Origin: Hormiphora californensis
Lineage: Eukaryota; Animalia; Ctenophora
Length of the DNA: 64,000 nt
NCBI GenBank assembly: GCA_020137815.1
Contig: CM035351.1
Span: forward strand, 7,378,001-7,442,000
Direction of reading: 5' to 3'
The translations under genes were made by a program, and so were the position numbers. This document shows positions 22,568-63,398 of the stretch, piece by piece (the first letter of the stretch is position 1; each line of letters starts with the position of its first letter). The notes under the pieces are model-generated. The model had not been told where the DNA came from. It searched no databases and saw only the letters and a list, made by a program, of their open reading frames with translations.

Positions 22568-25508
22568 TTACTGGCATCCGAGATGTTGACAGCAGAACCC
22601 GGGACAGTGTCTCCAGTACCAATCGACCCTGTTTTGGGCCCTCTCGTGAGAGAGATAGCAGTTGGCCGGGTTGAACCTGGAGCAGTACGGGTAGGGATCC
22701 ACCTTGGTTGTCCCACATGGCATGTCGTGATCACCGCCACAATTGGGACCCCGATAACAAAACTCCTTGGATCCTCCCCGGACAATACAATAGGGTGCCA
22801 TGTCCTGACCCCAGGGATTCCGACAGAAGTTGTGATTACCCAACCTCAACATTTCTCTTCCAAACTCCACTTCCTCAAAATCACCAACAACCGCCATTTG
22901 CTTCCAATTCTGACATCGCCGACCACTGACAGTGCTGGACAAGGATCCCTGGTAGTCCATGCCCGTACCGACAAAGTCATCCCCGGGGTTCTCTTGGCAG
23001 TACTGAATCAACCTACTGTCCGGTCCGAAGACATTTTGGACTTCACAGTAGTTTTGTTCCCCGGCCAGCACATACCCCTCATTGCATTCAATTTTCAATT
23101 TCTCTCCCACGGTAAGGAGGAAGTTATTGAGAACCCTTCCATTCTTGATATCGGGTGCCCAACACGTCCCAGTTGAGGGTTTCTCATGCCTCACCAGCAA
23201 CTTGACCATCTGAGTTTCAGTGCCACAGTCCAGGGGATTCATGTTGCACGTACGCGGACACTTTATCATGATATTTGTGGAAATTCGGCAGTAACTTTTC
23301 AACCGTGCACAACTCTTCTCTCCCACTAGCGGTACCTGATCCTTGCACCGGTACCCTCCATCGCTGTCACACACCTGACACGTATACCCGCACACATCCT
23401 GTACCTTTCTGTAGTTGCACTTGTTGAATAGCACCTGGCAGTTGTAACGGGGGTTGTCTCGGCAGTGTTCCGGCAGGGATAGGGAGAGGTGGCGACGTTG
23501 GGTTGCAATCCTCGTTGTCACTCGTTTTCTCTCTTTATCCAGCTCGTTCTGCCTGTCTTCATCAGACGTGTTTCTCTGGAATGAGGCAGGTTAGGCAGGT
23601 TAGGAAACTCTCCTAGAGTATGTGACTTGATGTGAGGTTGTTAAGAGTAAGGGGTGGGGCACCTCTTACTCAACTAATGTGAGGAATTCCAACTCGAAGT
23701 AAGGAATTTGAATCCATAGGAGGTGTTATTGCAAATGATAAATAGGCTGGATTCAGGGAGTGTCGAATATATATAATGCTCATGACAAAAAGACATAGGT
23801 CTCTTTAATTCTCGATCCATTCCTTCTCTTTCTCTGTGTTTCTTGGATCTTCAATGATAATATGAAAAAACTTGGGGGACTCCTGCTGCAGCAGGGGACG
23901 AATGATAATCGTTTTAGTGAATAGTGTTGAACTCCAATATAATGTATCTACTGGTATGGGTGGCAAATTCCAGATTACACAGTGTGTAATGTGGGATACC
24001 CTTGCATGGTTATTAGTGACATCATACAATTATTTAATTGGGGCAACGGAAGGTAGGTGACTGTTTGAATAATATAATCATGTCTCAGTATTTACCGGAA
24101 CACAGTACTGCTTGTGAGATCGGCACGTCTTCGTTTCGGAACAGTAAACAGGAAAATCATCAGGGCACCCCGATGTCGCCTGTATCTCTTTTGGCTCTGT
24201 TCTCGGTTCCGTCAGTAGGACGGACATGTGACTTTCAATTCCACATGAATTCCTCCCCCGGAGAATCCTAGAACGAGTTTAACGATGAGGAAAGAGGGGA
24301 TGAGAAAGAGATGGTGCGATTAGGGGCTCAATCCGGCTTTTGGAAAAATGTGAAATATTTAATTCATAAACTCAATTATTGAGTCCTGCAGCTGTAGTAT
24401 CGGGATTGTGTTCTGGTGTGTTAGTCGGCAAGATCAATGGATAATGAAATCAATAGCATGTACCTTTGCTTTGTCAAAAGAAGTAAAGGTGAATGGGAAA
24501 TATATTATGAATTCCGATATGTAAAATCTACCTGAAATATCCATTTTCACCCCAGTTAGAGCCTCGATCATTTTTTACTTTGTAGAAACGATTACCATCA
24601 ACTATGTCGTATCCTACTATCGTTACAAAGTGGTCACACGAGTCGCTTGACCGACTGTAAAAGTTGTTAAAAGGTTAAGTTTGCAAGCCGACTGACAAGT
24701 CTACAGCTCTCAGTCTTAATTAAAGTGGGCTGCCGTGGCAGTAAAGATACATTTAGCATTTAATATACTCACCCGTCGAGTATTCCCTCTCCGTATCCGT
24801 GATATGAAGGGCATACCGTGTTTTCAGTTGAGATGCACGCCAGTACACTACCATACCTGCAGACAACAATGATTCGAAGAACATCGAATTCTGACACCTA
24901 ATTGGCGTTGCCATGGTAACACATTCTGACACCTAACTAGTGTCGCCATGGTAACACATTCTGACACCTAACTAGTGTCACCATGGAAACACATTCTGAC
25001 ACCTAACTAGTGTCGCCATGGAAACTGACCTCACAATGGCGCTCTCGAACTCCTCCGCTGTAATTGATGCCAGACCGGTGACCCTGATGTCAATGAGTCC
25101 ATCCGGTGCCCCGGCACTCCTGCAGACTCGTTTAGTGGACCCATAACTGGCATATTTATCCTCTGGAGACAGTCGATCGTGAACCTCCAGCCACTTAACA
25201 AGTTGCTCTAAGCTGTCACCAGAGCCCGTCCTGCAGCCGTTCATGTAACAGTCTATAATCTCCTGCTCACTGAACTTCGGCAGGCTGCCCGTGTGTCTGA
25301 AGTATGCTATTTCTAGGGCAGTTGTGAGGGTAAACACATCGGAGGCGGAACATAGGGGAGCTCCTAACAACCGGCTGGAAGCTGGCTCTGGTAACCGGAC
25401 CTCTCTGTCGATATCAAATCTTGCAGGAGTCTCAATTGAGGTGTCGAGATAGATGGCGTGGAGAATGAAGGCAAGTTGTAGTAGGATAACGTGGAATAAA
25501 AGGGCCAT
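22568..25508 (-). CDS. Secreted papain (C1A)-fold protein with Cys-to-Ser nucleophile, followed by ShKT x2, sushi, kringle and an ShK-like C-terminus
   Basis: Exons ~25508-25030, ~24856-24773, ~24654-24534, 24267-24096 and 23575-22568. Motifs: FSEQEIIDC..GC, CDHFVTIVGY, KVKNDRGSNWGENGYFRILRGRNSCGIE; CGYTCQVC and CPRTC (ShKT); ECNEGYVLAG (sushi); GMDYQG...HNFCRNP (kringle). Confidence 0.85.
24888..25025. repeat. 35-bp minisatellite, 4 copies, making up most of an intron
   Basis: Unit acattctgacacctaactagtgtcgccatggtaac. Confidence 0.9.
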
Positions 25509-26720: not shown

Positions 26721-27460
26721 GGAGTCTTCGGAGTGTCATATATGGCTCCATTGAGACGAGAAATATATATATGGAAAAAGAGCTGGAGAGAAGCCGATAA
26801 CAACTGAATCTGAAAACATATTGAAGAATAGGCCGATGGAGAGAGAGAGAGAATGTATACAGCATTATGTTAGGTTTAAAATTGGAAGAGTTGACAGGTA
26901 TTCAGAATGTAGAATGAAGGGTATACTATAGAAGAAATTAGGGACAACCGCATTAGCCGAGTCAAGAGCTGTGTCGCTGACAAGTAATACTCTCAAGTTA
27001 TTTACTAAATGCAAACCCGGGATTTTGGTCAGGCTTCATCATTGAAGCACGATTATTCCCCTTCTTTCTGTCTCTATAACTTACAACTATCTCTCTTTCT
27101 TCCCCTGATGTAGTGTTCAGTCATTTTGGTAGGCTGGAAGGAGCCAAGAGTTTCTATTTCTTGAAGGTACTCATATAAGTCGCGTGTGAACTCAATCTTG
27201 CTTTCACTATTCATGAACCCAGACTCTGCCCCCACTCTGCCATAACAAATTATCCTATTTTCGACTTTCAGGAATTCTATAGTTGTAACGGAAACTACCT
27301 TATTATGTACCTAAAATCTTATTTTTACTGTTTCCATGGTAACCGTATCGGTAACTATGAAGACTGAATCGCTAAAATGTGTTCTAAAATAATCACGAAC
27401 TTCCAAAAGTGTGAATAACAGCTTTACAGCGTTGGTCACATAAATGCTTTAATGAAGGAG

Positions 27461-28783
27461 CACAGTGGCCTTTTTCATGGGAGTAGGTGGTCATTAAGAA
27501 AAAAAAATTTTTTGAACCTATCTGGTAGCTTTTTGGACGTAGAATCCAATGCACCCCTCACTCATGCCTTGATTTTTTGAGGAAAGTGGTGTTTTTCCAA
27601 AAAGGAGGGTAATTGAAAAATTTTCGAAACAATTTTTTTGATCTTATCTGGTAGCTTTTTTGACGTAGAATCAAATGCACCCCTCACTCATGCCTTGATT
27701 TTTTGAGGAAAGTGGTGTTTTTTCAGTTTTTAGTCTTTTTAGGCTTCTTTGACAACCATACTTAAAATTTAGCTGGAGCAGGTGAAATGGGGATCCATAA
27801 CAATTTAAATGTGGTTGATAGTAAGAAATCGAACAAATGTATATCTCATTCAAAATTTTTTTTCAAACTTCATCCAGGGCGTTTTTATGGTCAAAAAACG
27901 AAGAAAACTTGATTTTTCGACCATAATATACAATAGTACGCACTTGAAACCTTTTTTATCTGAAAGGCCAGACAATTTCCTATCTTTTGGTCTATAGGAC
28001 ATCGATGAGGTTCGATGAGGAGGCTGGGGAGAAAAAAGAGCCACAAAAAGACGAAAAAACGCGTTTTCACCGTTTTCCTTCAATATTAGAGTCCTAATTC
28101 TATCGGCAATCGATTCTACGTGTAAAATAAGGTCGAGAAACGTGTTTAGTTAGGTCTCAAACTTTTGAAAGATCGTTTTTTTTAAAGTAAACAAACACGC
28201 CTTCTTTAATGCTTTCTCCCCAGCCTCCTCATCGAACCTCATCGATGTCCTATAGACCAAAAGATAGGAAATTGTCTGGCCTTTCAGATAAAAAAGGTTT
28301 CAAGTGCGTACTATTGTATATTATGGTCGAAAAATCAAGTTTTCTTCGTTTTTTGACCATAAAAACGCCCTGGATGAAGTTTGAAAAAAAATTTTTGAAT
28401 GAGATATAAATTTGTTCGATTTCTTACTATCAACCACATTTAAATTGTTATGGATCCCCATTTCACCTACTCCAGCTAAATTTTAAGTATGGTTGTCAAA
28501 GAAGCCTTAAAAGACTAAAAACTGAAAAAACACCACTTTCCTCAAAAAATTAAGGCATGAGTGAGGGGTGCATTTGATTCTACGTCCAAAAAGCTACCAG
28601 ATAAGATCAAACAATTTTTTTCGAAAATTTTTCAATTACACTTCTTTTTGGAAAAACACCACTTTCCTCAAAAAATCAAGGCATGAGTGAGGGGTGCATT
28701 GGATTCTACGTCCAAAAAGCTACCAGATAGGTTCAAAATAAAAATTTCGTAAAATTCTTAGTGACCACCAAAAGGCCACTGTG
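27461..28783. mobile_element. Non-autonomous Transib/RAG-like DNA transposon with ~570-bp inverted arms
   Basis: Termini CACAGTGGCCTTTT...AAAAGGCCACTGTG. 5-bp TSD AGGAG at 27456-27460 and 28784-28788. Arms ~27461-28035 and ~28213-28783 are near-identical reverse complements. Confidence 0.88.
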
Positions 28784-29342
28784 AGGAGCACCGTCGCATA
28801 ACAACGCACTGAACGAACGACGTTCAAATCTGTTTTATAGCAGAGATAAGGTAGCTAGTTGATAACACGAACAATACTTCATTGACGAAGGTATCCGGGA
28901 TCACGACAGGATTTGTTGAGTACTCAACAAGACAGGATTAATAATTCTGGAATAGTCTAGGTTCATGAATAGGTGGAAAGAAAATATAAAATCAAACGGC
29001 ATAAAGAACAGACTACCGTGATACTCTGTCAGAGCATTAGCCTGACAGGTGATACTAAACTTGGACAAATCGACATTTTAAGGGACCAACTTACAAAAAG
29101 TACCCAGATATGTTTAGTGTTTACCATTGAGGGTATATTAACCCGGGCGCCGCGCCACAGGTATTTGGATTGGGTTGACAGCACTTTAAACGAAGCGTTG
29201 CAAGACACAGGTTAGGTACTTTTTATAAGTTGCTCTGTAATGATTACTCTGCAGAACTATACCTTCGTGGAAAGGTTTAGCATTCTTGTTACAAAAAGAG
29301 ACAAGAAAAGGCTGCGGAGCTATCTCAGAGACAGGTGTCTGT

Positions 29343-29908: not shown

Positions 29909-32900
29909 GGAGGGTGAGATTCCTTCCTACGCCTGATGGAGTGCGGGCCGGGGCTAACGTCTAGCACAACCCTACTAAAAGGGATGTAGCTAGCGATAGT
30001 GTCTAAAGACTCCATCTCTGGAGAGCATACCCAGGGGACAAACCACACACCCCCCTGTAATGGGTCTCTCCATCTAACATGGACTAACCCAACCCCTTAA
30101 TCAAGATTCAAAAATTCCAAACTACTAACAAATTCACTCCAGGTACAATGGTAGAAAACCAGCAGAGACCGGAGTTAAACACTTCATTATATTATTACCC
30201 AGGGGCTCTTTTACGTTCCCCTGTAACTACCAGAGCCAAGTTTTGGGACGGGGCAACTACAGGGATGCCCAAATCAAATGGGCTACCCTTGCTCCCGACC
30301 CTAACTTATAACTAAAGAACCAATATATAGGCCAATAGGGTGTGTAATTCGCCGACCCCCAGGCCACGGGGCCTTAATTCCGTGGTCACGAGGCGTCTCT
30401 TCTTTCCCTTTTAAAACAACGGGGCATATCATTACTGACCCGCCATAATCCCATGCTATATGGAGAATTATATTACCTTCACAAACCATCTAAGTGAGGA
30501 CTCTCACTACCCTTATCTCCCCCAAATAGCTAGAGGACTCTCAGCAACTCCGCACAGGGCCCCCATCCCAGGAGGGCCCTTCAGGGAGCACCCTCTATCC
30601 GGGGAGCACCCTCCATTACATGAGGGCACCAGCCCCTGTAAAACGGGACTATCGCCCGTAAGAGAAGCTGACCTTCTAAATGATGGAGATTCGGGCAGTG
30701 TAGCGACAGGGAAAGGGCAGAAGAGTCAAATCGCAGCCCCGAATAGTGCAGGTGGAATCCAAATGACCCTCCGAAAGGAAGGGACAGGGAGGTCCAACAC
30801 TGTCCGCGGAGCCCAAGACAATCTGCCGCCCCCACCCCAGAAGGAGGGGCAGCAGAGTCTAGGGCCGCCTCCAGGACCCTCAGCAGCCAAGAAAATAAGT
30901 AAAAACATCAGAGTAACACAAATTAACCTCCATAAAAGTCATGAAGCATGGGATGACATAATCACCTGTAACCAAACACGATCACAAATTATCCTAGCCC
31001 AAGAACCACCTATTATAGGGAAAACATCTAAAGTTAGAGCCAGCGGAGGATTCTCTGCCCTATATGACAAAAGGGCTCAGAGACCACGTGCGAGCATCTT
31101 AATCAATAGTAACCTAGGGAGGAACGTATTTCTCCTTGACAAATTCACTGACAGGGACACAGTCACTATCCTTGTCAAACTGGGCACCAAATCAGTCATT
31201 TTATGCTCAATGTACATGGACAGAGAGCTAGAATGCCCTCCTAAATTACTAGGAGAGTTGGCAGCCCACGCAAAAAGAAATAACCTGAAACTAGTAATTG
31301 GATCTGATACCAACGCCCACAACACTAGTTGGGGGGCACTGGTTAAAGATCCTATTGGGAAGAAAAGGGGAGATGCACTATTAGATGCCATTGTAGATCT
31401 TGATCTGCATGTATCGAATGTGAATTGCCCCCACACTTTCGACAATGGAACAAGAAAAAATGTGCTAGATCTTACCATGACCAACAACCATGCACTGGAC
31501 ATGATACAAGACTGGCAGACAGTAGAAGGAAAATGCAGATCCGACCACGTACCCATCACATTTGTGTTGAGGGACATGGACGGTAGCAAGATCCGCTCAT
31601 TCTACAATATTAAGAAAACAAACTGGGCCCTATATAGACAACTTGTGGAAAAGGGCCTAGAAGAAACAGGACTGACAGAAATGGTAATATCAAACGCCGA
31701 AGAACTTGAAACAGCCAACGAAAAACTAATAGAACTGATGCTGTGGGCATACTACAAGTGTACCCCAAAAACATACGTTTCCGCCCACTCCAAAGACCCC
31801 CCGTGGCTCAGTGGGGAGGTCAAGGCAGCTAGGGAAGAAATATTTGATAAACTGAGACACGCCCAGACCACGAAAGTGCATCAAGACTGGGACTCAGCAA
31901 AAACAGCTCGAAACAAATACACAAAAACCAAAAACCAGTCTAAATTTAAAAACTGGAAAATATGGGCTGAAGATCTCGATGCATATTCAGATGCCCAGAA
32001 GGTTAGCCAAGTGCTCAAGAACAGTAAAGATTATAATCTCAGCTGTATCTTTGACGCAAATGGTGAACTATCACAGTCCCCTAAAGAAACCCTCCAGATA
32101 ATGGCAGAGGTTCACTTTGGCGAGGACCACTCAACTAGACCCTCCCTCAAGGACAAAACTGAAGCCCCAGAAGGGGAGTGGTCTGATGAAAAAACATTCT
32201 CGAAAACACGTATCATCAAGGCGCTGAGGGAATTTAAACCCTTAACAGCTGCTGGGCCGGATGGCATCAGGCCCATCATGATGCAAAAAGTAGCAGACAT
32301 TATTGCTGAACCATTTGCAAAGATAGCTAAGGCATCGTACAGTCTAGGGGTAACCCCCAAATCCTGGCAGGAAGCAGAAGCCATCTACCTGCCCAAGCCA
32401 GGAAAGGATGACTATCGTATGCCTAAATCATACCGAACAATAACCCTTGCGTCAAACCTCCACAAACTCATGGAACGGTTAATTCTATGGCACATTGAGG
32501 TAGACCAAAAAGTACACAAAAAATTAAACAAGTCGCAATATGGATTTAGAAGAGGCGTTTCAACAGAAACAGCCCTCCATAAAGTAGTACGCAAACTCGA
32601 AGGCACCCTCATGCACAAGGGCATTGCCCTGGGTACGTTCTTGGACATCGAGGGAGCCTTCGATAACGTGGCATTCCAAGCTATGGAAAGAGCCCTTCAT
32701 GCAAAGCTACGCGACAAAAGAACAGCGGTCTGGATCACCTACATGATCTCAAACCGCGAAATAACCACGAACCTAATGGAAGAGTCCCTTACTATAAGAG
32801 CCACCCGGGGTTGTCCCCAGGGAGGAATACTTTCCCCGTTCCTATGGAACCTGGTAATGGACGATCTACTAAACCATAGCAAAAAGAATATACCAGGTGA

Positions 32901-34765
32901 ACTACAGGGCTTTGCGGATGACTTATGTCATATAGTAGCAACCACAATGCCCTCCGGAAGAAATGGACCCTCTGCGGACATACTCCCTCTAAGGGACGCA
33001 ACCCAGAAGGGGCTTAATTCCATAAACGCCTGGTGTAAGACAGTAGGGCTTAAACTAAGTGCCCTGAAATCGCATGTAGTCATATTCACCCATCGAAAAA
33101 AATGTGAAAATTGGAAACCCGATCAAAATTCAGGGTAACCCTATCAAAGTGTCCGAATCCACGAAGTTTCTAGGGATTACCCTTGACAGCAAACTGAACT
33201 GGAACGAGCACGTAAACAAACAAATAAAAAAAGCAAAAAATATCCTGATGCAGTGCCGTAAAGTGGTGGGACCCACGTGGGGACTAAACCCTAAAACGGC
33301 CCTATGGATATACACTGCAATAGTGAGACCCACCTTATGCTACGGGGCAATGGTCTGGGCTAATGCAATGCGAACCAAAACAAACAAAGAAAACATGATA
33401 AGGGTACAGAGGCTAGCACTCAAGATGGTAACTGGGGCCATGCCCTCGACGCCATCAACAGCCCTAGACACAATCACAAACACCGCCCCGATCACCGACC
33501 ATCTGAGGTACTGTGCAGCCAAAACTGCATACACCCTAATGGCAACGGGAGAATGGGAAGGGCCAATAAAATCAGACCTAAAGACCCCAAAAGTGTTCAC
33601 TTCGCATGCCAACACGGTATCACGTGATCTCAGAACTCTGGAAGCAGAGGGCAGATGTCACGATCTCACAACCCCGGAACTCACCCTAGACAGGGAATTC
33701 TCGTTAGAGATCCCAGAAAGGGAGACGTTTTTGGAGGATGGAGACAAGTACACGATAGTTGCACACACTGATGGGTCAAAAATTAACAACAATGCCGGTG
33801 CAGGATACATTATCCACTCTGGCGAAACAGAGCTAGCTCGAAATTCGTATAACCTAGGCCCCGAAGGAACTGTCCCGGCGGCAGAAATGTATGCCATACA
33901 ACAGACGGCTCAATATCTCCTGGATAGGGGAACAGCTAACGAGCGAATACTCATAAACTGTGACAGTCAAGGGACAATAAAGACCCTAGACTCCACGACA
34001 TGCAGATCAAAAACCACGATAAAGACTATCAAAAATCTGAACACCCTAGCCATATTCAACGATGTCATGATTAGATGGATCCCGGCCCATCAAGGGTACG
34101 ATGGAAACGAAATAGCAGACATCTTGGCAAAAAGGGGTGCTCAGGAAATCGAAGAAGTAACTCTCATACCAATTCCCAAAGCGGCAGCCTATGCAGCCCT
34201 CAGGGAGAAGGTTAAAACCGGACCCATCAAACAAACCAAACATATGGACATGATGTGGACCGAAAGATATGAGAGACCTCTTCAAAAACTTAATAGAACA
34301 GACCTAAGGGCGGCGACACACCTACTCACAGGGCACTGCCACCTTAACTACCACATGAAAAAATTAAAAAAAGTCGAGACCACAACCTGTGCAGCATGTG
34401 GGATGGAAGACGAGACAATAAAGCATGTACTTACTGAATGCCCCGCCCTTTGGAAACTCCGACAGGAATCCTTTGACAGGCTGGGCCTCAGCATGTACGA
34501 AATTAGACACCATCAACCCCTTAGAAAAACGATCTCGTTCTATAAGAAGGCGATGGAGATACTTCACCCCCCTGAAACCACCCCTTAAAGGGAGGTTTCC
34601 CCTGTGACCTGGTATGGCACCAGCTCCCCAAGTCTCCTTGGGCCGAAGCAGTTGGCAACATACCAGCCACACCACCCAGGACGGGGAACGGGAGCCTCAT
34701 GGCACCCACCCCTTACTGGCTAGTGCTTCGCACTAGCCAGCGTCCTCCCAGAAGAAGAAGAAGAA
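29909..34765 (+). mobile_element. Non-LTR retrotransposon (LOA/Lian-like; APE-RT-RNase H-CCHC)
   Basis: 13-bp TSD GGTGGTCAGTTTC at 29896-29908 and 34766-34778, and a (GAA)n tail. ORF motifs: QINLH, GSDTNAH and SDH (APE); GCPQGG and FADD (RT); HTDGSK, WIPAH and GNEIAD (RNase H); CAAC...HVLTEC. Confidence 0.95.
30460..34588 (+). CDS. LINE polyprotein split by one extra A in an A7 run at 33096-33102
   Basis: Removing one A fuses the 892-aa and 494-aa ORFs (…HRKNVKIGNP…). Confidence 0.88.
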
Positions 34766-39813: not shown

Positions 39814-42358
39814 TCAGGGCTTGTTATTTTCTCTTATCTGATTGTTTTCTCTGTTTTCTTTAACTTTAAAAGCAACTGTCTTCCCTACCCACGTCTCTCC
39901 CTTTTTATCCCTCCTCGGTATCGGTCGGTACTTCAGGTACCGGGGTTTCGGGAAGGCAACCTGCACGGCTGATTGGAGGATCATCTGGTGAAGTCTACTG
40001 ACAAGTAAAGGTGCCGGGCCGTCCGAGGGGAGCTTATAATAGTTACACAAATACACCAGAGATCGCTCCTTCAGTAGTAGGATATCTTGCAGTGCAATGT
40101 TTTTTAGTGGCCCTGATATTTGGTAGACTTGTTTCCGTTTATCCAAACTATCCTCCTCCGCTCCAGAGCCCTCATCATCTGCTAGACACGATGTAGTTCG
40201 TTTTCGGCCCCGTTTTCTGGAGGAGGACGAGGAGGAAGGTCGCCGGACACGCCCAGATTTACTGCTCCCGGCTGGGCCCCGGTGTTATAGGAGGGAGGAG
40301 GTGGTGGTATAGAGGTGTTTTTAGGCCACGATACGACCTGATTTTAGACCGTGTAATGCACAGAATAGGGGTGAGTTTCTTAACCTGAACCTCACACGCC
40401 TCTTGAAGATGGAACAGAGGAGAGACATGGGAAATAGGGAAGAAGGGTTCATGACCGGATGGAAATGTCTTTCTTCGTTTACTGCTCTTAGGGCCAGGTC
40501 TGCTAAAGAAGACCTTGTCCATGAATGTGGAAACAGTGTCACTGTCATCAATATCAGTTATGACGTCATCATTCAGAATGTCCGCAGGGGTTATCACATC
40601 GTCAATAAATGTCACTGCAACATCCGGTACAAGTGGTTTACTGGGGGTATTTTCTGGTAACCTCCTTTTCAGCCCAAATCCAGTCCATGGTTTCTTATTT
40701 TTTGATTGATCTCCCCATATGTTTTTTGATTGATCTTTCCGTACTTTTTTGTTTTTTGATCGACACCTCTCAACTTTCTTGTTTCTCAAAAGACCCATAT
40801 CCTCGGATTCCGATCCATATACAACTTTGTAGCCCGGTACATCCATACCGTCCTGTGGATTATCTGGTACCACATCCTCCTCGAGTATCGTAGCAACCTC
40901 ATCCGACACCTCTAGTGGGCCTCTATCCTCCAGTGAACCTCTGATATAAGAACGCGAACGGGTTTCAAGAAATTTAGGAACTTCCACAATCTCTGTGTCA
41001 GCGCCCTCCACTATTTCTGTAATGAAGGTTTCAAAAGATCCCGGTGAACTGAGTGAGCTGTCAGAACCATCATCATCATCATCATGGATACGACAATTTT
41101 TATCAATCTCTTGCAGTGGATCAAATATAGGAGGACTAGGCTGAGTAGGGGGTGATTTAGTATCCATCTCTTGAACATGATTTATTGCAGGAGATTCGGG
41201 CCGGGAGGGAGATGGCTTAGTATCCATTTCTTCGGTTGGATTTAAGGTTGGAGATCCGGGCCTGGAAGGGGATGATTTTGTATCCATATCTTGAAGAGGA
41301 GAAACATGCGGACTCGGAAAGGGGGATATTTCTGGTTCCTGCTTTGGCACTGTCCTAGGAATGATAGGTGTAGGTGGGTCATACACAGGAGATCCAGGAC
41401 ACTCCAGCATCTCATCCTCTGCTTCATTCGTGGTGGAGTCTGCAGCAGTAACTGTAATATCTGGCCGTGAATTGTTACACTCTGGAGGGTCTACTAATGG
41501 AGTCTCTTGTGGCAAATTACCCCAAATGTTGTTGAATAGGGATGCCAAGTTGGGCTTCCTCTTGCCCTCTCCTTTTATTTTGACAGGAAGCTTCGGTGGT
41601 CCTTCACTAGGAGCTTTCCGCTGAACATATTTAGCAACGCCATTCTTATTGCCAAGCGGTTTCTCAAGCAACAAATCAGCATCAACATTAATCGCTTTGG
41701 CTGTTTTGGAAAAGGAAAAGAACTGCCCCGGCTCAGCTGAGTGCCGGCTGGACTTGGGTAAGGGAGCAGTAAAGTCTTCCAAAACAGTGTCCGGGTACCG
41801 GGTACAAGATCGCCGCGAGGAACCAGTTCCATTTACAGCTGCTTTCTTTGGCTGATAGAACAAACTCCTTTCCGTTGAAGTAAAGTCGCTCGGCCCAAAG
41901 ATATCACCCGGCTGAAAAGTCTTTTGAAATTTGGTTTTGTTGCGGGATTTGGTTTTGTTGATGGGCTTGAGGGCTTCACAGGACCCTATAACGTTCTCAG
42001 CTCGAGATGGGTGTGATGATCTATCATCTAACTTTCGTCTCTTGCCTTTCTGAAATGTGAGTATGCGTTAGGGAAAAGAAATGGAGATGAAATAAATGGG
42101 GATATATCATTTTGAATGACACATGCACAGTGTACACACTATTTATTGCAGGTAGTACACAGTACACACAGAATGTACAGTCAGTACACTGAAATAAAAC
42201 ACTGAGAGTCTACATGTGGGCCCGCTTTGTTGCGCGAAGTCTGTGATGGTTGTCATGTTATTTTGTCGCCGCGCGTTACGTCACCGTATACCTGGGAGGG
42301 TTTGGTGGTCGTAGTTGTGTGCCCGTTGTTCTGGCGGTGTTTCGGAGGTCGTCCCATC
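39814..42358 (-). CDS. Low-complexity putative nuclear protein with N-terminal AT-hook-like GRPPK and C-terminal SAP-like motif
   Basis: Exon 1 MGRPPKHR...KPSQ|GT. Exon 2 from ~42049 is in frame with the 534-aa ORF. A frame change near 40260-40400 leads to LLLKERSLVYLCNYYKLPSDGPAPLLVSRL. Confidence 0.55.
41100..41320 (-). repeat. Coding 60-bp repeat (x3.5), consensus QEMDTKxxPxxPxSP
   Basis: Visible in the translation and as tatccat motifs spaced 60 bp apart (41161, 41221, 41281). Confidence 0.75.
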
Positions 42359-45150: not shown

Positions 45151-46123
45151 TCAATAAACTGCCTGCTCCTTCGCTGTAAAATATTCCTTGAACGCCTCAA
45201 AAGTTGTAATGAATATTGTACACGAGGGAATAACTTTTGTCATTCGCGGAATGAGCCCCACGAACAACCCTCTAAACCCCTGCGTCTCTGTCACGTGTGC
45301 AAGTTGTTGTATCAGTCCTCGGTTCCCAACCTCACTCTCCCCAACCCCGATACTAGACTGAACTTGTGTCTTTGCAAGGTCAAAAGGATGGGAGATGAGG
45401 GTGGCAACTAACCCGCCCGTTACCGCCCCTCCCACATTGCTGAGCACAGTTCCATGGTGTGCTAGACGGAGTTTAACGCGCTCCTGTAAATACCAGTAGA
45501 CCGCTGTAAAAGGGATATCACGGAGAAGCTGGGCACGGGACCCATCCCACAGAGATCGCCTTCCATTTAATGAGATGTGCCGCTTTATTGATTCCTTTAG
45601 TTTCCCATAGTCAAGTTGATTCTCACTCTGAGCTTTGGTTCTTACCATCTCGATAGGAGAAAATACAGCTACATTGATGGAACGGGATAGCACCCCCGAT
45701 ATAGATGGAACTATAGGATGCCACTTTCTCCCTGACAAAATCCTTGCCCCTGTTTCTCATGTAGTCAAAAGAGGTAAAATAGAGAACAGCAGAGGGGACT
45801 ATCATGAGAAGGGTGGGGGTGACCCCATTCCACAGTGCAAATACCCCCTCAGTCCTTGATATCCTAACTGCTGCATCCCATGTCCCCGTGTACATTACCT
45901 TTTGACAAATTCCCCTGTATACTACTTGCGGTGGGTGGGCGTGCCCGCAACTGACACATACATCGTCCAGGACGCCCTTACAGTACCGGTAGTAACACTC
46001 CTTGTTATGGGTATGGAGAGACTGGGCGATCAGACGGGTTTTTAGGACATCAAAGGGTGTAGCTAGGAGGGCGACAAGGAGGCCCCCTGTGCCCGTTGCA
46101 ATGACGTGTTCATGGGGTCGCAT
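45151..46123 (-). CDS. SLC25A40: Mitochondrial carrier SLC25A39/40 (Mtm1/shawn family), intronless, one frameshift
   Basis: Three Px(D/E)xx(K/R)T signatures (PFDVLKT, PIEMVRT, PFDLAKT), Cys-rich loop YCKGVLDDVCVSC, and LRDIPFTAVYW. One extra base in the 4-nt run at 45737-45740. Confidence 0.85.
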
Positions 46124-46427
46124 GGTAGTGAAGTCTGATCTCTCTTATCATATCCAGCTAGCTATAACGGGGGTTAGGAAGTAGAGTTAGTATATAGGAG
46201 GAAAACAAACGTTCTCTCTCTCTCCCTCTCTCTCACTCTCTTTCTCTATCTTTCTCTCTCTCACTCTTTCTATCTATTTTGTTTGTGCGTGTCACACACT
46301 TTGTTTATCACGCAATATCACGCCACCCTCCTCTCTCTCTCTCATTTGGCCAGTAGTGGCGAGAGTTGTTACGCGACGGCTGTTACCGGAATTAGCTGTA
46401 GTCGCATCAGGAGAGACGGGAGAGAGA

Positions 46428-56894: not shown

Positions 56895-56972
56895 CTATAG
56901 AGAGAGAGAGAGAGAGAAGAGAGAAAGAGAGAAGAGAGAGAGAGAGAGAGAAGAGAGAGGATGAGGAATGAA

Positions 56973-57003
<31 letters not shown>

Positions 57004-57182
57004 GAGCTGCTTGTTTGAGTGTAGAGAGAGAGAGAGAGAGAGAGAGAGATAGGATAGAGAGAGCAGAAGAGGAGATAGAAGCGATCGAGGCGAGAGTAGA
57101 GAGCGGAAGAGAGCGAGAGAGAGAGAGAGAGAGATGAGAGAAGAGAGAGAGATGAGAGAGAGAGAGAGCGAGAGAAGCGAGA

Positions 57183-57237
<55 letters not shown>

Positions 57238-57320
57238 TAGAGAGATAGAGAGTCTCCTCTCTCTCTCTCTCTCTATCTCTATATACTCTCTATTTCTCTC
57301 TCTCTCTCTCGCTCTCTCTA

Positions 57321-57388
<68 letters not shown>

Positions 57389-57400
57389 GCCTCTCTTCTC

Positions 57401-57444
<44 letters not shown>

Positions 57445-57466
57445 CTCTCTCTCTCTCTCTCTCTCT
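56895..57466. repeat. (GA)n tract switching directly to (CT)n
   Basis: Polarity switch at about 57252. Confidence 0.9.
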
Positions 57467-59075: not shown

Positions 59076-60704
59076 TAACCTAGATGTTATCTCTCTATCT
59101 AGAGATCTAATATTTGCATCCCTAGATGGTTTCTCTCCATCGCTAAATACTACATCGCTATCAAGACCAACATCGCCAACTCCAACATTCATGTTAGTAC
59201 CCCACCCTAATTTTAAAGCTACCGGATACCCCATCCTCATTTATTACCCCATCTCTCAGTTAGCCCACGCTACCTCTCACTCTCAACTACTCAGGAGTCA
59301 GGTACCCTCTTTTTCTCCCTCCCCCTTCCCAAAAAGAGAGGGTACACCGTGCCCAACAATTAGACCACGTCACCTCTCACTCTCACCTACTCAAACACTA
59401 TGTCTCAAGTACCCGGCATCTCTACCACCCTACCCGTTGGGTACCCCACGCTGCTAGATACCTATGAAATTTTGCTAGATGCCCCTAAAACCCCCTAAAT
59501 ACACCAATATATCCACTAGAAACCCCTCGGACTCTACAAAATACCCCTCAGAGCATTATTCACGAACGGACACTATCACACCATGTCATACTCACAAACG
59601 GACACACACTAACATCGTTACTAAAATCTCTGTCTTTTCTCAGGTATTATTGACCACGTTAGACCTTCCACGACCTTCCCCACGACAACTTTAAATTGCC
59701 AAGGTTTGTGATGAACTACAACGACATGGACACCTGAAACTCGCCATTTTCCAGGTACAGTGTTGTCTTGTTCGACCTTCCTTCCCCGAACAAAACAAGT
59801 ACAGTGTGGGAGCGGCCAAAATTCACGTGGGAGTCACGTGACACAACGTTACTTTATGTGCACTATCTCTCTCTATCTGTCTATCTCTCAAATATGTAAC
59901 GGTTTCCAATTCAGGTGTGATAATTACGGCAGATAATCTAGACAAGTTCACTCTTCCTATGGTTCCCACAATCAAGGGATGGCAAGGGAGGGAGGGCACA
60001 TGTTTTTTCATCATCACGGGACTGTTGAAGTCGGTTAAGGCACCCACGGAGCTAAGCCGTAATCTCCCTGCTGTGCATCAAGCTAACAATGGTCCTTAGA
60101 TGGCCCTACCTCTGCTGATGGCTGTAAACTGCAAGGATTTCAGTGCAGTGGAGACATTGATTGTTAAATGTACTATCCTGGAGCCTCATGAACAAGTTTA
60201 ATGTGTAAGAGTGACTCTTGTATATCCGTCATTTCCCAATAATATTTCCCCTGTGCTGTATGTGTCTAGAGAGAGGGCGTGAGGAGACGAGTATTTTAAT
60301 TTTAATTTCAATTTAGGTGGACCCATAAAGGGAAGATCTATATACATATTTAGTGTCACCATTACTGATTACTTTATTTGTAAACCTGTAAACCTGTATA
60401 TTTTGTAACATGATTTTTCCAAGTTTAGTTTCTTCACCTTGAAAATTGTTGTTTTGTTCGAACAAGGCAAGAAAGTTGCTCATGATGTCTTTAAAAAACA
60501 ACCCCAACCGCCGATTGGCATCACTTTTCAGCAGCCCTCATGTCCAATTTGCCACAGTTTGATATAACTTTACGTCGCGCGCGTTTGTTAAATCTCTTAT
60601 CGAAAGTCTAAGTAAGTCGGCATTTCAATACCGCGCGTACGACCCCCTAGGCCCTTTAAGGGCCTGTAGCATAGGCCAATATTTTCGTCGATTTTGGCCT
60701 TGAA

Positions 60705-61314
60705 TGTTGTGATCGAACCTCACCTTCTTCCACTAACTGGAGAGGAGTTCAAATACCGTTCCGCCATCACCACCGAAGAGGCTCGATTAGATGTCTCAGC
60801 ACGTGACCTCTGGTCTCCTATGGCAAAGCTATTCCTTGATTTCCGCGTCTTTAACTCTCGAGCCCCCACCAATCAATCTCTTCCTATTACCAAGGCTCTC
60901 AAGAAACACGAGGATGAGAAGAAGCGAGCATATGGTGAACGTGTCTTGCAGGTCGAAAAAAGTTCCTTCACACCGGTTGTCTTCTCGACATCAGGAATTA
61001 TGGGCGATGAACCAGACAAGTTCTATAAGAAGCTTGCTTCTAAACTTTCCGATAAAACGAAACAATCCTATCCCGACTCTATCCGGTACATTAGGCAACG
61101 ATTATCATTCTGCCTCTTGAGGACACTTGTGATCAGTCTAAGGGGTCACCGTGGCACTAGCCCAAAACGTTTCAGCGACAGGAATGATATTAACATTTTA
61201 TACATGATTAAAAACAATTCGAATTAATTTATTATATCCATTTTATGTACAGATAACCTTGATTTCTATATCCATTTTACTAATTGAACCGGTACCCCGG
61301 CTTTTGCAAAAAAA
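60705..61314 (+). mobile_element. 5'-truncated CRE-like non-LTR retrotransposon (restriction-like endonuclease C-terminus)
   Basis: ARLDVSARDLW...FLDFRV...HEDEKKRAY...FTPVVFSTSG. Short poly(A) tail. 14-bp TSD ATTTTGGCCTTGAA at 60691-60704 and 61315-61328. Confidence 0.85.
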
Positions 61315-61582: not shown

Positions 61583-62530
61583 CTATCCTACTTGGATTAG
61601 ATTGTTTTTGATATAGTATTTTCCGCCCGGGTCCTCTAAGCGGAGCTTTTTCAAGGTGGTGATAAGGGCTTTACGCTCCTTTATTTGGACTGGAGTTAAG
61701 TCTGGTGAAAAGTAAACAGCTGAGAAGTGTTCCGAGTTCTTCAGCTGACGTGACTTTTTCAGCAGCGCCATAAGTGTTGCTCGTTTTTCCAAAGAAACCA
61801 ATAGAGGTCGAGGGCCCTTTTCGTTTCTCTCGCCGATACGTTTTATGGAATTTACTTTTGGTTTTTCATTCAGCTCGGCAAACAAACCATCGACACTGTT
61901 CTTAGTCAGGCGTTCCGTTGTTTCTGGTATACCGAATATTACAAGATTTTTATCCCTCTCGGACAATGGTGCGTGAGTTGGTTCTTGAGAAGATTTTCTC
62001 ACCACCGGAGAGACTGCAGCACAGTTTTGAGCAAGAACAGTAGAGTAAGCTTTCACCTTCTGCACTGAGTTTGTCATTGAACTTAGTTGCTCCTGTTGAT
62101 TGTTGATGACGGTCTGCTGCAGCTCGATCACCGTAACACGGTGGCGGTCAAGTTCTTCTTTGCACTTACGAAACTCCTCCTCTAGTTTCCTCGTACTGCT
62201 AGCCTCATCAAGGCTATACATTGCACATTTCAGAAGTTTCACACCGGACAAAAAGGTTTTACATGTAGTGTCTATGATTTCCTCTTTAGATAAGGTCTTG
62301 AGAATATGTCTAAAGTGAGAGCATATATCGTCACTAGGTGAACCAAGTTTTGACTCAGGGAATTGTTTGATAAAGTTGTAGTTATTCGTTACTTGCTGCG
62401 GTTCAAAAGTTATCTCTTCCGAGGTATCCTCGTAGTCCATTCTCAAAATTTCCATAACATGGTCGTTCACTGCTTTTATCAATCGTTCATTCGTAGGGTT
62501 ATCGCCCTCGTTATCTTTCGTTCCCATCAC
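61583..62530 (-). CDS. CR1/L2-type LINE ORF1 protein (coiled coil plus RRM/CTD-like region)
   Basis: ERDKNLVIFGIPE, RIG...GPRPLLV and VYFSPDLT...ERKAL motifs. Confidence 0.75.
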   Translation of the reverse strand: MMGTKDNEGDNPTNERLIKAVNDHVMEILRMDYEDTSEEITFEPQQVTNNYNFIKQFPESKLGSPSDDICSHFRHILKTLSKEEIIDTTCKTFLSGVKLLKCAMYSLDEASSTRKLEEEFRKCKEELDRHRVTVIELQQTVINNQQEQLSSMTNSVQKVKAYSTVLAQNCAAVSPVVRKSSQEPTHAPLSERDKNLVIFGIPETTERLTKNSVDGLFAELNEKPKVNSIKRIGERNEKGPRPLLVSLEKRATLMALLKKSRQLKNSEHFSAVYFSPDLTPVQIKERKALITTLKKLRLEDPGGKYYIKNNLIQVG

Positions 62531-63398
62531 TACCTAGAGGCTCACGCCTCAAATTAATTTGTTTAAAGTAGTGTTGAAAAGTTTCAGCGTTACCTTATCT
62601 CACACTGCCTGTAGCATATTCCAACCTTTCTAGGTAGTTTATCTGGAATTTGGAGGCCGAATCACACCTCTGATCCCCACAAAGCTTTAGAATTGACATA
62701 AAAATTATCCAAAAACGTTTTAGTAGTGTCTCAGGACTCAGACCCAGGTACTTTAGATTCCAAAAACGTAATTCCTAAATCCTGGGGTACTAAAGCTCCG
62801 GAAACACTTGGCACATGCTACAGACCCATAGAAAGTGCGGGATAAGGGAGCGCTTTTCAACGAAAACACCAGAACCTGCCACCTGGAATAACCTGCACAC
62901 CAGGCTGCTCTCCACCGTGTAGCGGTGCAGAGCAGCCACTAGACACGAATCACGATGAGGTGTAAATCAGGTCACCATACAGTCCCCGTGTGGGTTGTGT
63001 AGGAACCTGGAATAACGGAATAGAAAATAGACTAAGTATGAAGTTTAATATTTTTTTTCCTGGGTCAATCGCAACGCTTGTGAAGGTCTCCCTGTACAAA
63101 GAGCGAAGAGAAACAGGGGACACAAATGAGGGTGAACCGTAGGTATTGTGTTAGGACACCCTGTATAAATGTTTATGTTACAATGTAAAACCTATGTTGT
63201 ATTGTGCAACAGCACAAAACCTAAGACGGCTAAGAGGCCATCAGTTGGGGTTTGTTAATTTTTCATTAGTTTTTACTTAACCTAAAATGTACTCTTCAAT
63301 ATCGGTTTTATGCCTCCATTGCCTCCAAGCTTATACCACTCACCAATAATTATCTAAAAACTTTTAGCTCAGCAGTGAATGGTTGATACCAATGGGGG

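Follow-up and report, generated by a model that had tools for sequence, protein, structure and literature searches.

The 1,323-bp element at 27461-28783 of the window (by which we mean the whole 64-kb stretch of DNA that was analysed) most likely adds a member to the Subgroup I Transibs of ctenophores: a non-autonomous foldback for which a Transib transposase from another locus of the genome is the probable mover. It is recently inserted, polymorphic and multi-copy, and its empty site is present in one sample. New are the exact 11-nt offset between its long and its short tip and its foldback body; the architecture itself has already been described in the same phylum.

Boundaries and unequal tips

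The element lies between two copies of AGGAG (Table 1). When duplication lengths from 2 to 10 were tried, a match was found only at 5 and at a nested 2. Identical 5-mers at the spacing of the element occur at only 97 of 62,595 window positions, so a chance duplication of AGGAG is unlikely. At this single insertion site, three of the five target bases are G or C. Both tips start with CACAGTG, a heptamer that is frequent by itself (11 occurrences in the 64-kb window), and they form a perfect inverted repeat of 14 nt. Beyond it, the shared block GGTGGTCA starts at nt 26 of the left tip and at nt 15 of the right tip, which gives the 11-nt offset. The heptamers and the duplication claimed in the original prediction were thus confirmed from the window letters, and the displacement of the shared block by an 11-nt insert from the alignment of the two tips. 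A second cluster of indels near nt 41-50 reduces the net difference in tip length to 4 nt. The element shows two features of the Transib superfamily: a 5-bp duplication (at one insertion site) and inverted tips that start with CAC and carry a heptamer like CACAATG or CACAGTG.

It is exceedingly improbable that the element belongs to another superfamily with CAC ends and a shorter duplication, such as CACTA or Chapaev. The nested 2-bp match does flank the element, and the target goes on with CAC, which leaves an ambiguity of eight letters at the empty-site joint; against this, the empty site is short by exactly 1323 + 5 bases, and the tips are mirror images only when the duplication is read as 5 bp. 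A reading with an 8-bp duplication was rejected, as it would leave the left tip without CAC.

Table 1. Features of the element and its target-site duplication (window coordinates)
Feature	Position	Strand	Basis or remark
Left copy of 5-bp target-site duplication	27456..27460	.	AGGAG; empty site skips 1328 = 1323 + 5
Right copy of 5-bp target-site duplication	28784..28788	.	AGGAG
Outer 14-nt element of long tip, CACAGTG at start	27461..27474	+	Perfect inverted repeat with 28770-28783
Outer 14-nt element of short tip	28770..28783	-	Perfect inverted repeat with 27461-27474
11-nt segment only in long tip	27475..27485	+	Tip-to-tip alignment; contigs of other copies cover the segment
Second conserved block of long tip, CATTAAG at nt 32-38	27486..27500	+	Register of MleTransib_2823 5' end (hand count)
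Second conserved block of short tip, CACTAAG at nt 21-27	28755..28769	-	Register of 3' ends of MleTransib_3931 and PbaTransib_0868 (hand count)
Left foldback arm, about 574 bp	27461..28034	+	94.3% identity to right arm over 582 columns
Right foldback arm	28213..28783	-	Alignment to left arm
Non-palindromic centre, 178 bp, no coding match	28035..28212	.	Arm alignment, frame scan
Two internal repeats of left arm, 126-bp spacing	27501..27725 (27501-27599, 27627-27725)	+	
Two internal repeats of right arm, 126-bp spacing	28523..28765	-	

A foldback body without genes

The element is a foldback, a feature that had escaped the original prediction. Between the two arms, the first 60 nt differ by 4 mismatches and 18 gap columns and the remaining 514 nt by 10 mismatches and 1 gap. 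Although 28 stop-to-stop frames of at least 30 aa overlap the element, the longest is 99 aa, and a Pfam scan of 10 of the 28 gave no match at E 0.1. An Rfam scan of 27200-29100 was likewise without a match, and neither the frames nor the Pfam scan of 10 of 28 revealed a RAG1L or RAG2L gene inside the element, which is non-autonomous and gene-less. By blastn, neither the element nor its flanks occur a second time in the 64-kb window.

The tip motif AGTGGNNTTTT recurs within the arms: in the left one it is found at nt 4, 125 and 251, and in the right one at nt 4, 121 and 247. The inner copies, which are degenerate, lie at window positions 27585 and 27711 and at the mirror positions of the right arm, and the rest of the window holds two matches. 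This recurrence suggests that the arms may have grown by tandem duplication of a former end. When the long tip was compared with the first 126-bp unit, the left arm matched at 16 of 24 positions (20 of 2000 shuffles) and the right arm at 15 of 24 (96 of 2000); that the long tip might be the ancestral one is only suggestive from these internal units.

Further copies and an empty site

Of 11 listed sequencing runs, 9 contain the whole stretch or a part; no RNA data set is among them, which carries no information on expression. We compared four of these runs, each in the form of assembled contigs: X3 from one sample, X5 and X6 from a second sample, and X9 from a second organism; the marine metagenomes X7 and X8 (share 0.08) were left out. 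A joint from 27455 to 28784, which skips 1,328 bases (the element plus one duplication), was present in X5 and X6, i.e., in one sample, and absent from the joints listed for X3 and X9. In X6 the depth of the contig with the empty site (665.5) equals that of the contig extending 200 nt into the right flank, so this joint is probably the same locus without the insertion, with the caveat that the surrounding sequence is itself a repeat of very high copy number.

That other repeat, which the element interrupts (about 27321-27460 and 28784-28830), is far more abundant. Its mean contig depth exceeds 200,000 at 27377-27434 in three runs vs. about 200-300 in the flanks, and reaches 32,690 in the second organism. 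It has no Rfam match and no second copy in the window.

Both types of tip were found on other copies. At 27499, in the long tip, depth was 1210 in X3 (1 contig), 5014 in X5 (11 contigs), 0 in X6 and 184 in X9 (3 contigs); at 28744, in the short tip, it was 2772, 1293, 1791 and 3846, respectively, where contig depth does not equal copy number. Depth of the flanks was 165-665 in X3, X5 and X6. Long and short tips were about twofold apart in depth, in either direction, in X3, X5 and X6, and far more in X9. All of the depth at 27499 in the compared runs carries a letter other than that of the window, so the contigs there represent other copies. The 11-nt segment is covered by at least one contig in each of X3, X5 and X9, as read from the distances to contig ends, and an X9 record over 27461-27546 departs from the window by 7 letters and 1 gap. 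Before 27460, the flanks of three X6 contigs are different. The contigs with the short tip reach beyond the place that the 11 nt would occupy; an X9 record over 28683-28784 has 7 other letters and 10 gap letters whose placement is not given.

These contigs largely refute the alternative that the 11-nt indel is private to the window copy and that the ends of the family are symmetric, and we regard it as extremely unlikely. The left tip of the window does carry private changes, at 27499, 27505 and 27507, and the 12 indels listed out of 21 include none of 11 nt. On the other side, in two samples the contigs with either tip type are several times as deep as the flanks, and the second organism also has both. 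Long and short tips are thus shared by the family, and the private indel that the original prediction had named as a refutation does not apply. As none of the listed contigs spans the whole element, the pairing of a long with a short tip is seen on the window copy only.

At 27534-27537 and 28712-28714, linked alternative letters make up most of the depth of three runs, pointing to a related, more abundant subfamily with the 126-bp unit.

Register of the second block

The original prediction placed its 9-mers after 23 nt of spacer in the left tip and 12 nt in the right tip, a spacing like that of a 12/23 pair. They match the vertebrate nonamer ACAAAAACC at 4 of 9 positions and carry TA instead of AA at nonamer positions 5-6. 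AA is found at positions 5-6 only with spacers of 13 and 24 nt, and the matches are then 2 of 9. Since other registers score as high as or higher than the 12/23 register, "12/23" is the label of a chosen register, while the 11-nt offset is observed. The spacing stands to that extent, and the statement that the 9-mer is not the canonical nonamer was upheld; as an RSS nonamer the 9-mer fails. Thus, the vertebrate RSS heptamer CACAGTG is present at both tips, and neither tip has ACAAAAACC after 12 or 23 nt or an A-rich nonamer with AA at positions 5-6 of the insect Transib5/Transib2_AG type.

Relation to ctenophore Subgroup I Transibs

Six ctenophore Transib-like proteins have been reported (Tao 2022, PMC9435367), and the same paper describes asymmetric ends in all Subgroup I Transibs and names ctenophore elements in the legend; our placement of these elements in Subgroup I rests on that legend and on their ends. 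In its supplement, five ctenophore elements are filed as Transib (MleTransib_2823, MleTransib_3931, MleTransib_6236, PbaTransib_0868 and PbaTransib_8175). All three that are readable at both ends start with CACAGTGG and share the outer 12 nt (hand count). Their YATTARG block lies at nt 32-38 and 22-28, 31-37 and 21-27, and 31-37 and 21-27, an offset of 10 nt in each case, compared with nt 32-38 and 21-27 for CAYTAAG in the present element; TAGG is found at nt 24-27 in two further ctenophore 3' ends. This comparison of motifs was made by eye, with a motif defined after the sequences had been seen.

The present element shows the asymmetric bipartite ends of the subgroup, with the second block about one helical turn further in at one end (11 nt vs. 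10 nt in three of three). The asymmetry is common to the family in the sense that both tip types occur on other copies, the pairing being known for the window copy. The original prediction of a recently active Transib/RAG-like family thus holds insofar as the element is of Transib type, was recently inserted (empty site in one sample) and has a long and a short tip that recur in other copies and parallel those of published ctenophore Transibs. The phenomenon is not new: 12/23-like Transib ends (PMC1131882) and asymmetric ctenophore Subgroup I ends (PMC9435367) had already been published. We found no published description of a foldback ctenophore Transib or of the present family in the literature accessible to us; the repeat libraries Repbase and Dfam may hold it. 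A 12-mer shared by eye with the subterminal region of PbaTransib_8175 was left uncounted, as a rough estimate allows for chance.

We then considered the mover. Pattern scans of metagenome contigs gave 0 matches for the tip pattern and 0 for an internal 23-mer, and the pattern scan of viral contigs gave 0. The four pattern matches in prokaryote genomes were dismissed as chance: none extends beyond the pattern, and the DNA is 57-64% GC. No autonomous copy or transposase with these ends was therefore found in the metagenome, viral or prokaryote pattern scans. Published Transibs of P. bachei, two in number, have tips that differ from that of the element from nt 9 onward, and so neither may be its mover.

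It is very unlikely that the mover is a two-gene RAG-like transposon (RAG1L + RAG2L) in place of a one-gene Transib. RAG-like transposons also start with CAC and make 5-bp duplications, and some of their families have a 10-bp asymmetry and non-autonomous copies (bioRxiv 10.1101/2023.08.20.553239, PMC7204232). However, the five ctenophore elements of PMC9435367, whose tips are closely similar, are filed as Transib, and protostome RAG-like ends carry AAA at nt 8-10 (PMC7204232), which the present tip does not have.

How the two ends might be paired

By analogy with the chemistry of HzTransib and RAG, a dimer of Transib transposase would bind both tips, cleave them at the edge of CAC through a nick and a hairpin, and insert the element with a 5-bp stagger. 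Judging from published relatives, each tip would be bipartite, with the outer 12-14 nt followed by the block ending in TARG, a probable binding site. The DNA helix has 10.5 bp per turn, and with an offset of 10-11 nt the second block would face roughly the same side of the helix in the long and the short tip, such that one enzyme could hold a long and a short end. Gap repair can copy the interior of one end while preserving both tips, and the arms most likely arose in this way, the interior of one end having been copied onto the other with both original tips kept. Near-identical arms with unequal tips fit selection for asymmetry and fit tip-preserving gap repair too, which falls short of proof.

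Whether there is a real preference for the long + short pair seems to us almost evenly balanced, tilting slightly against it, and a strict pairing rule is unlikely. A strict rule, if true, would explain why unequal tips were kept on arms that are otherwise near-identical over 500 bp while the family spread in two species. We lean somewhat further against the alternative that the 11-nt difference is a passenger, which is nonetheless a substantial possibility: the enzyme would read the outer 14 nt only, and unequal tips inherited from a parent would simply have been amplified. The outer 14 nt are the sole terminal part that is perfectly symmetric, the second block is a poor nonamer, and gap repair would preserve both tips without selection. 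Published work agrees in part, as a main reliance on the terminal 15-17 bp and a fair insensitivity to asymmetry have been proposed for invertebrate RAG-like enzymes (Martin 2020, PMC7204232), and Hztransib ends have little or no likeness to a nonamer (Carmona 2016, PMC4840297). By contrast, elements of Mnemiopsis and Pleurobrachia have kept the second block and the 10-11-nt offset despite differing spacer sequence, which suggests constraint, and ProtoRAG, which favours its asymmetric pair, needs the distal block and the spacer length (Tao 2020, PMC8289069).

The origin of the 12/23 rule is disputed, as it has been tied to RAG2 (PMC4840297) or traced to an asymmetric Transib or RAG-like ancestor (PMC8355894, bioRxiv 10.1101/2023.08.20.553239, PMC9435367). 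Unequal Transib ends are known at the level of sequence. In the passages on pair assays that we consulted, asymmetric pairs were assayed with ProtoRAG and RSS pairs with Hztransib, and no Subgroup I Transib was assayed with its native ends. If a one-gene ctenophore Transib transposase without RAG2 were efficient only on long + short ends exactly 11 nt apart, which we consider improbable, a rule of the 12/23 type would predate the capture of RAG2. A multi-copy, polymorphic family with an exact 11-nt offset and near-identical arms offers a cheap natural test of end pairing; because the architecture is already known in the same phylum, the element is modest as a discovery and useful as a test substrate.

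Other features of the window

A mitochondrial carrier gene lies at 45151-46144 (-), with an exon at 45151-45756; its Bolinopsis relative is named SLC25A40-like. The exon has 98% identity to a Pleurobrachia bachei protein in EukProt and 56-59% to clusters with Mnemiopsis and Bolinopsis proteins, from which the host is placed as a Pleurobrachia-like comb jelly. At 30439-34588 (+) we observed a LINE-like retroelement, whose two frames (899 and 502 aa) overlap and encode endonuclease, reverse transcriptase and RNase H domains, and at 22568-23590 (-) a cysteine-rich frame of 340 aa with a Kringle domain. Frames of 156, 602, 185 and 316 aa at 39814-42067 (-), 60670-61227 (+) and 61583-62533 (-) had no Pfam match at E 0.001; our impression is that those of 185 and 316 aa may be retroelement remnants. 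At 56899-57466, an AG microsatellite of 350 bp is directly followed by a TC microsatellite of 210 bp, and the two could fold back on each other.

Comparison with known systems

The ctenophore Subgroup I Transibs come from the same host phylum and share with the element the CACAGTGG tips, the outermost 12-14 nt in identical form, a spacer that varies, a pair of ends of which one is long and the other short, and a second block that closes with TARG at nt 24-28 and 34-38; the 5-bp duplication is shared with PbaTransib_0868. The element differs from them in its offset (11 nt, not 10), in its tip from nt 9 and in having no transposase gene. Its inverted arms measure 574 bp, whereas the ends of PbaTransib_0868 are, by eye, alike only near the tips.

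5-bp duplications and RSS-like ends were described for Transibs, and five insect families have pairs of an RSS12-like and an RSS23-like end (Kapitonov and Jurka 2005, PMC1131882), and a later hypothesis was built on these pairs (Yakovenko 2021, PMC8355894). Transib5, Transib2_AG and TransibN1-N3_AG resemble the present element in their 5-bp duplication, CAC heptamer, RSS12-like plus RSS23-like ends and non-autonomous members (PMC1131882). Their nonamer is A-rich, whereas here the block is of the CAYTAAG type. Gene-less derivatives are known as well: Kodama/Hopper (about 1.4 kb) is similar in length and amplified in trans, and the same study (bioRxiv 10.64898/2026.08.26.747230) cautions that Transibs can differ among themselves in the length of the duplication and in their tips. 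Kodama arose by simple internal deletion and has end repeats of 37 bp, whereas the present element is a foldback with unequal tips.

Among RAG-like transposons, a 10-bp asymmetry has been reported in a hemichordate (Martin 2023, bioRxiv 10.1101/2023.08.20.553239). PflRAGL-A, AanRAGL and ProtoRAG are similar to our element in their bipartite asymmetric ends (10-bp, 4/13-bp and 27/31-bp spacers) and 5-bp duplication; they encode RAG1L and RAG2L, whereas the present element encodes nothing. With the vertebrate 12RSS and 23RSS, it shares an identical heptamer and a difference of 11 nt between two signals. Unlike them, it has no true nonamer, has conserved sequence beside the heptamer, is mobile and shows no sign of a host recombination role. 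The element behaves as a Transib, with ends arranged in the manner of RSS pairs; we class it neither as an RSS nor as a RAG-like transposon.
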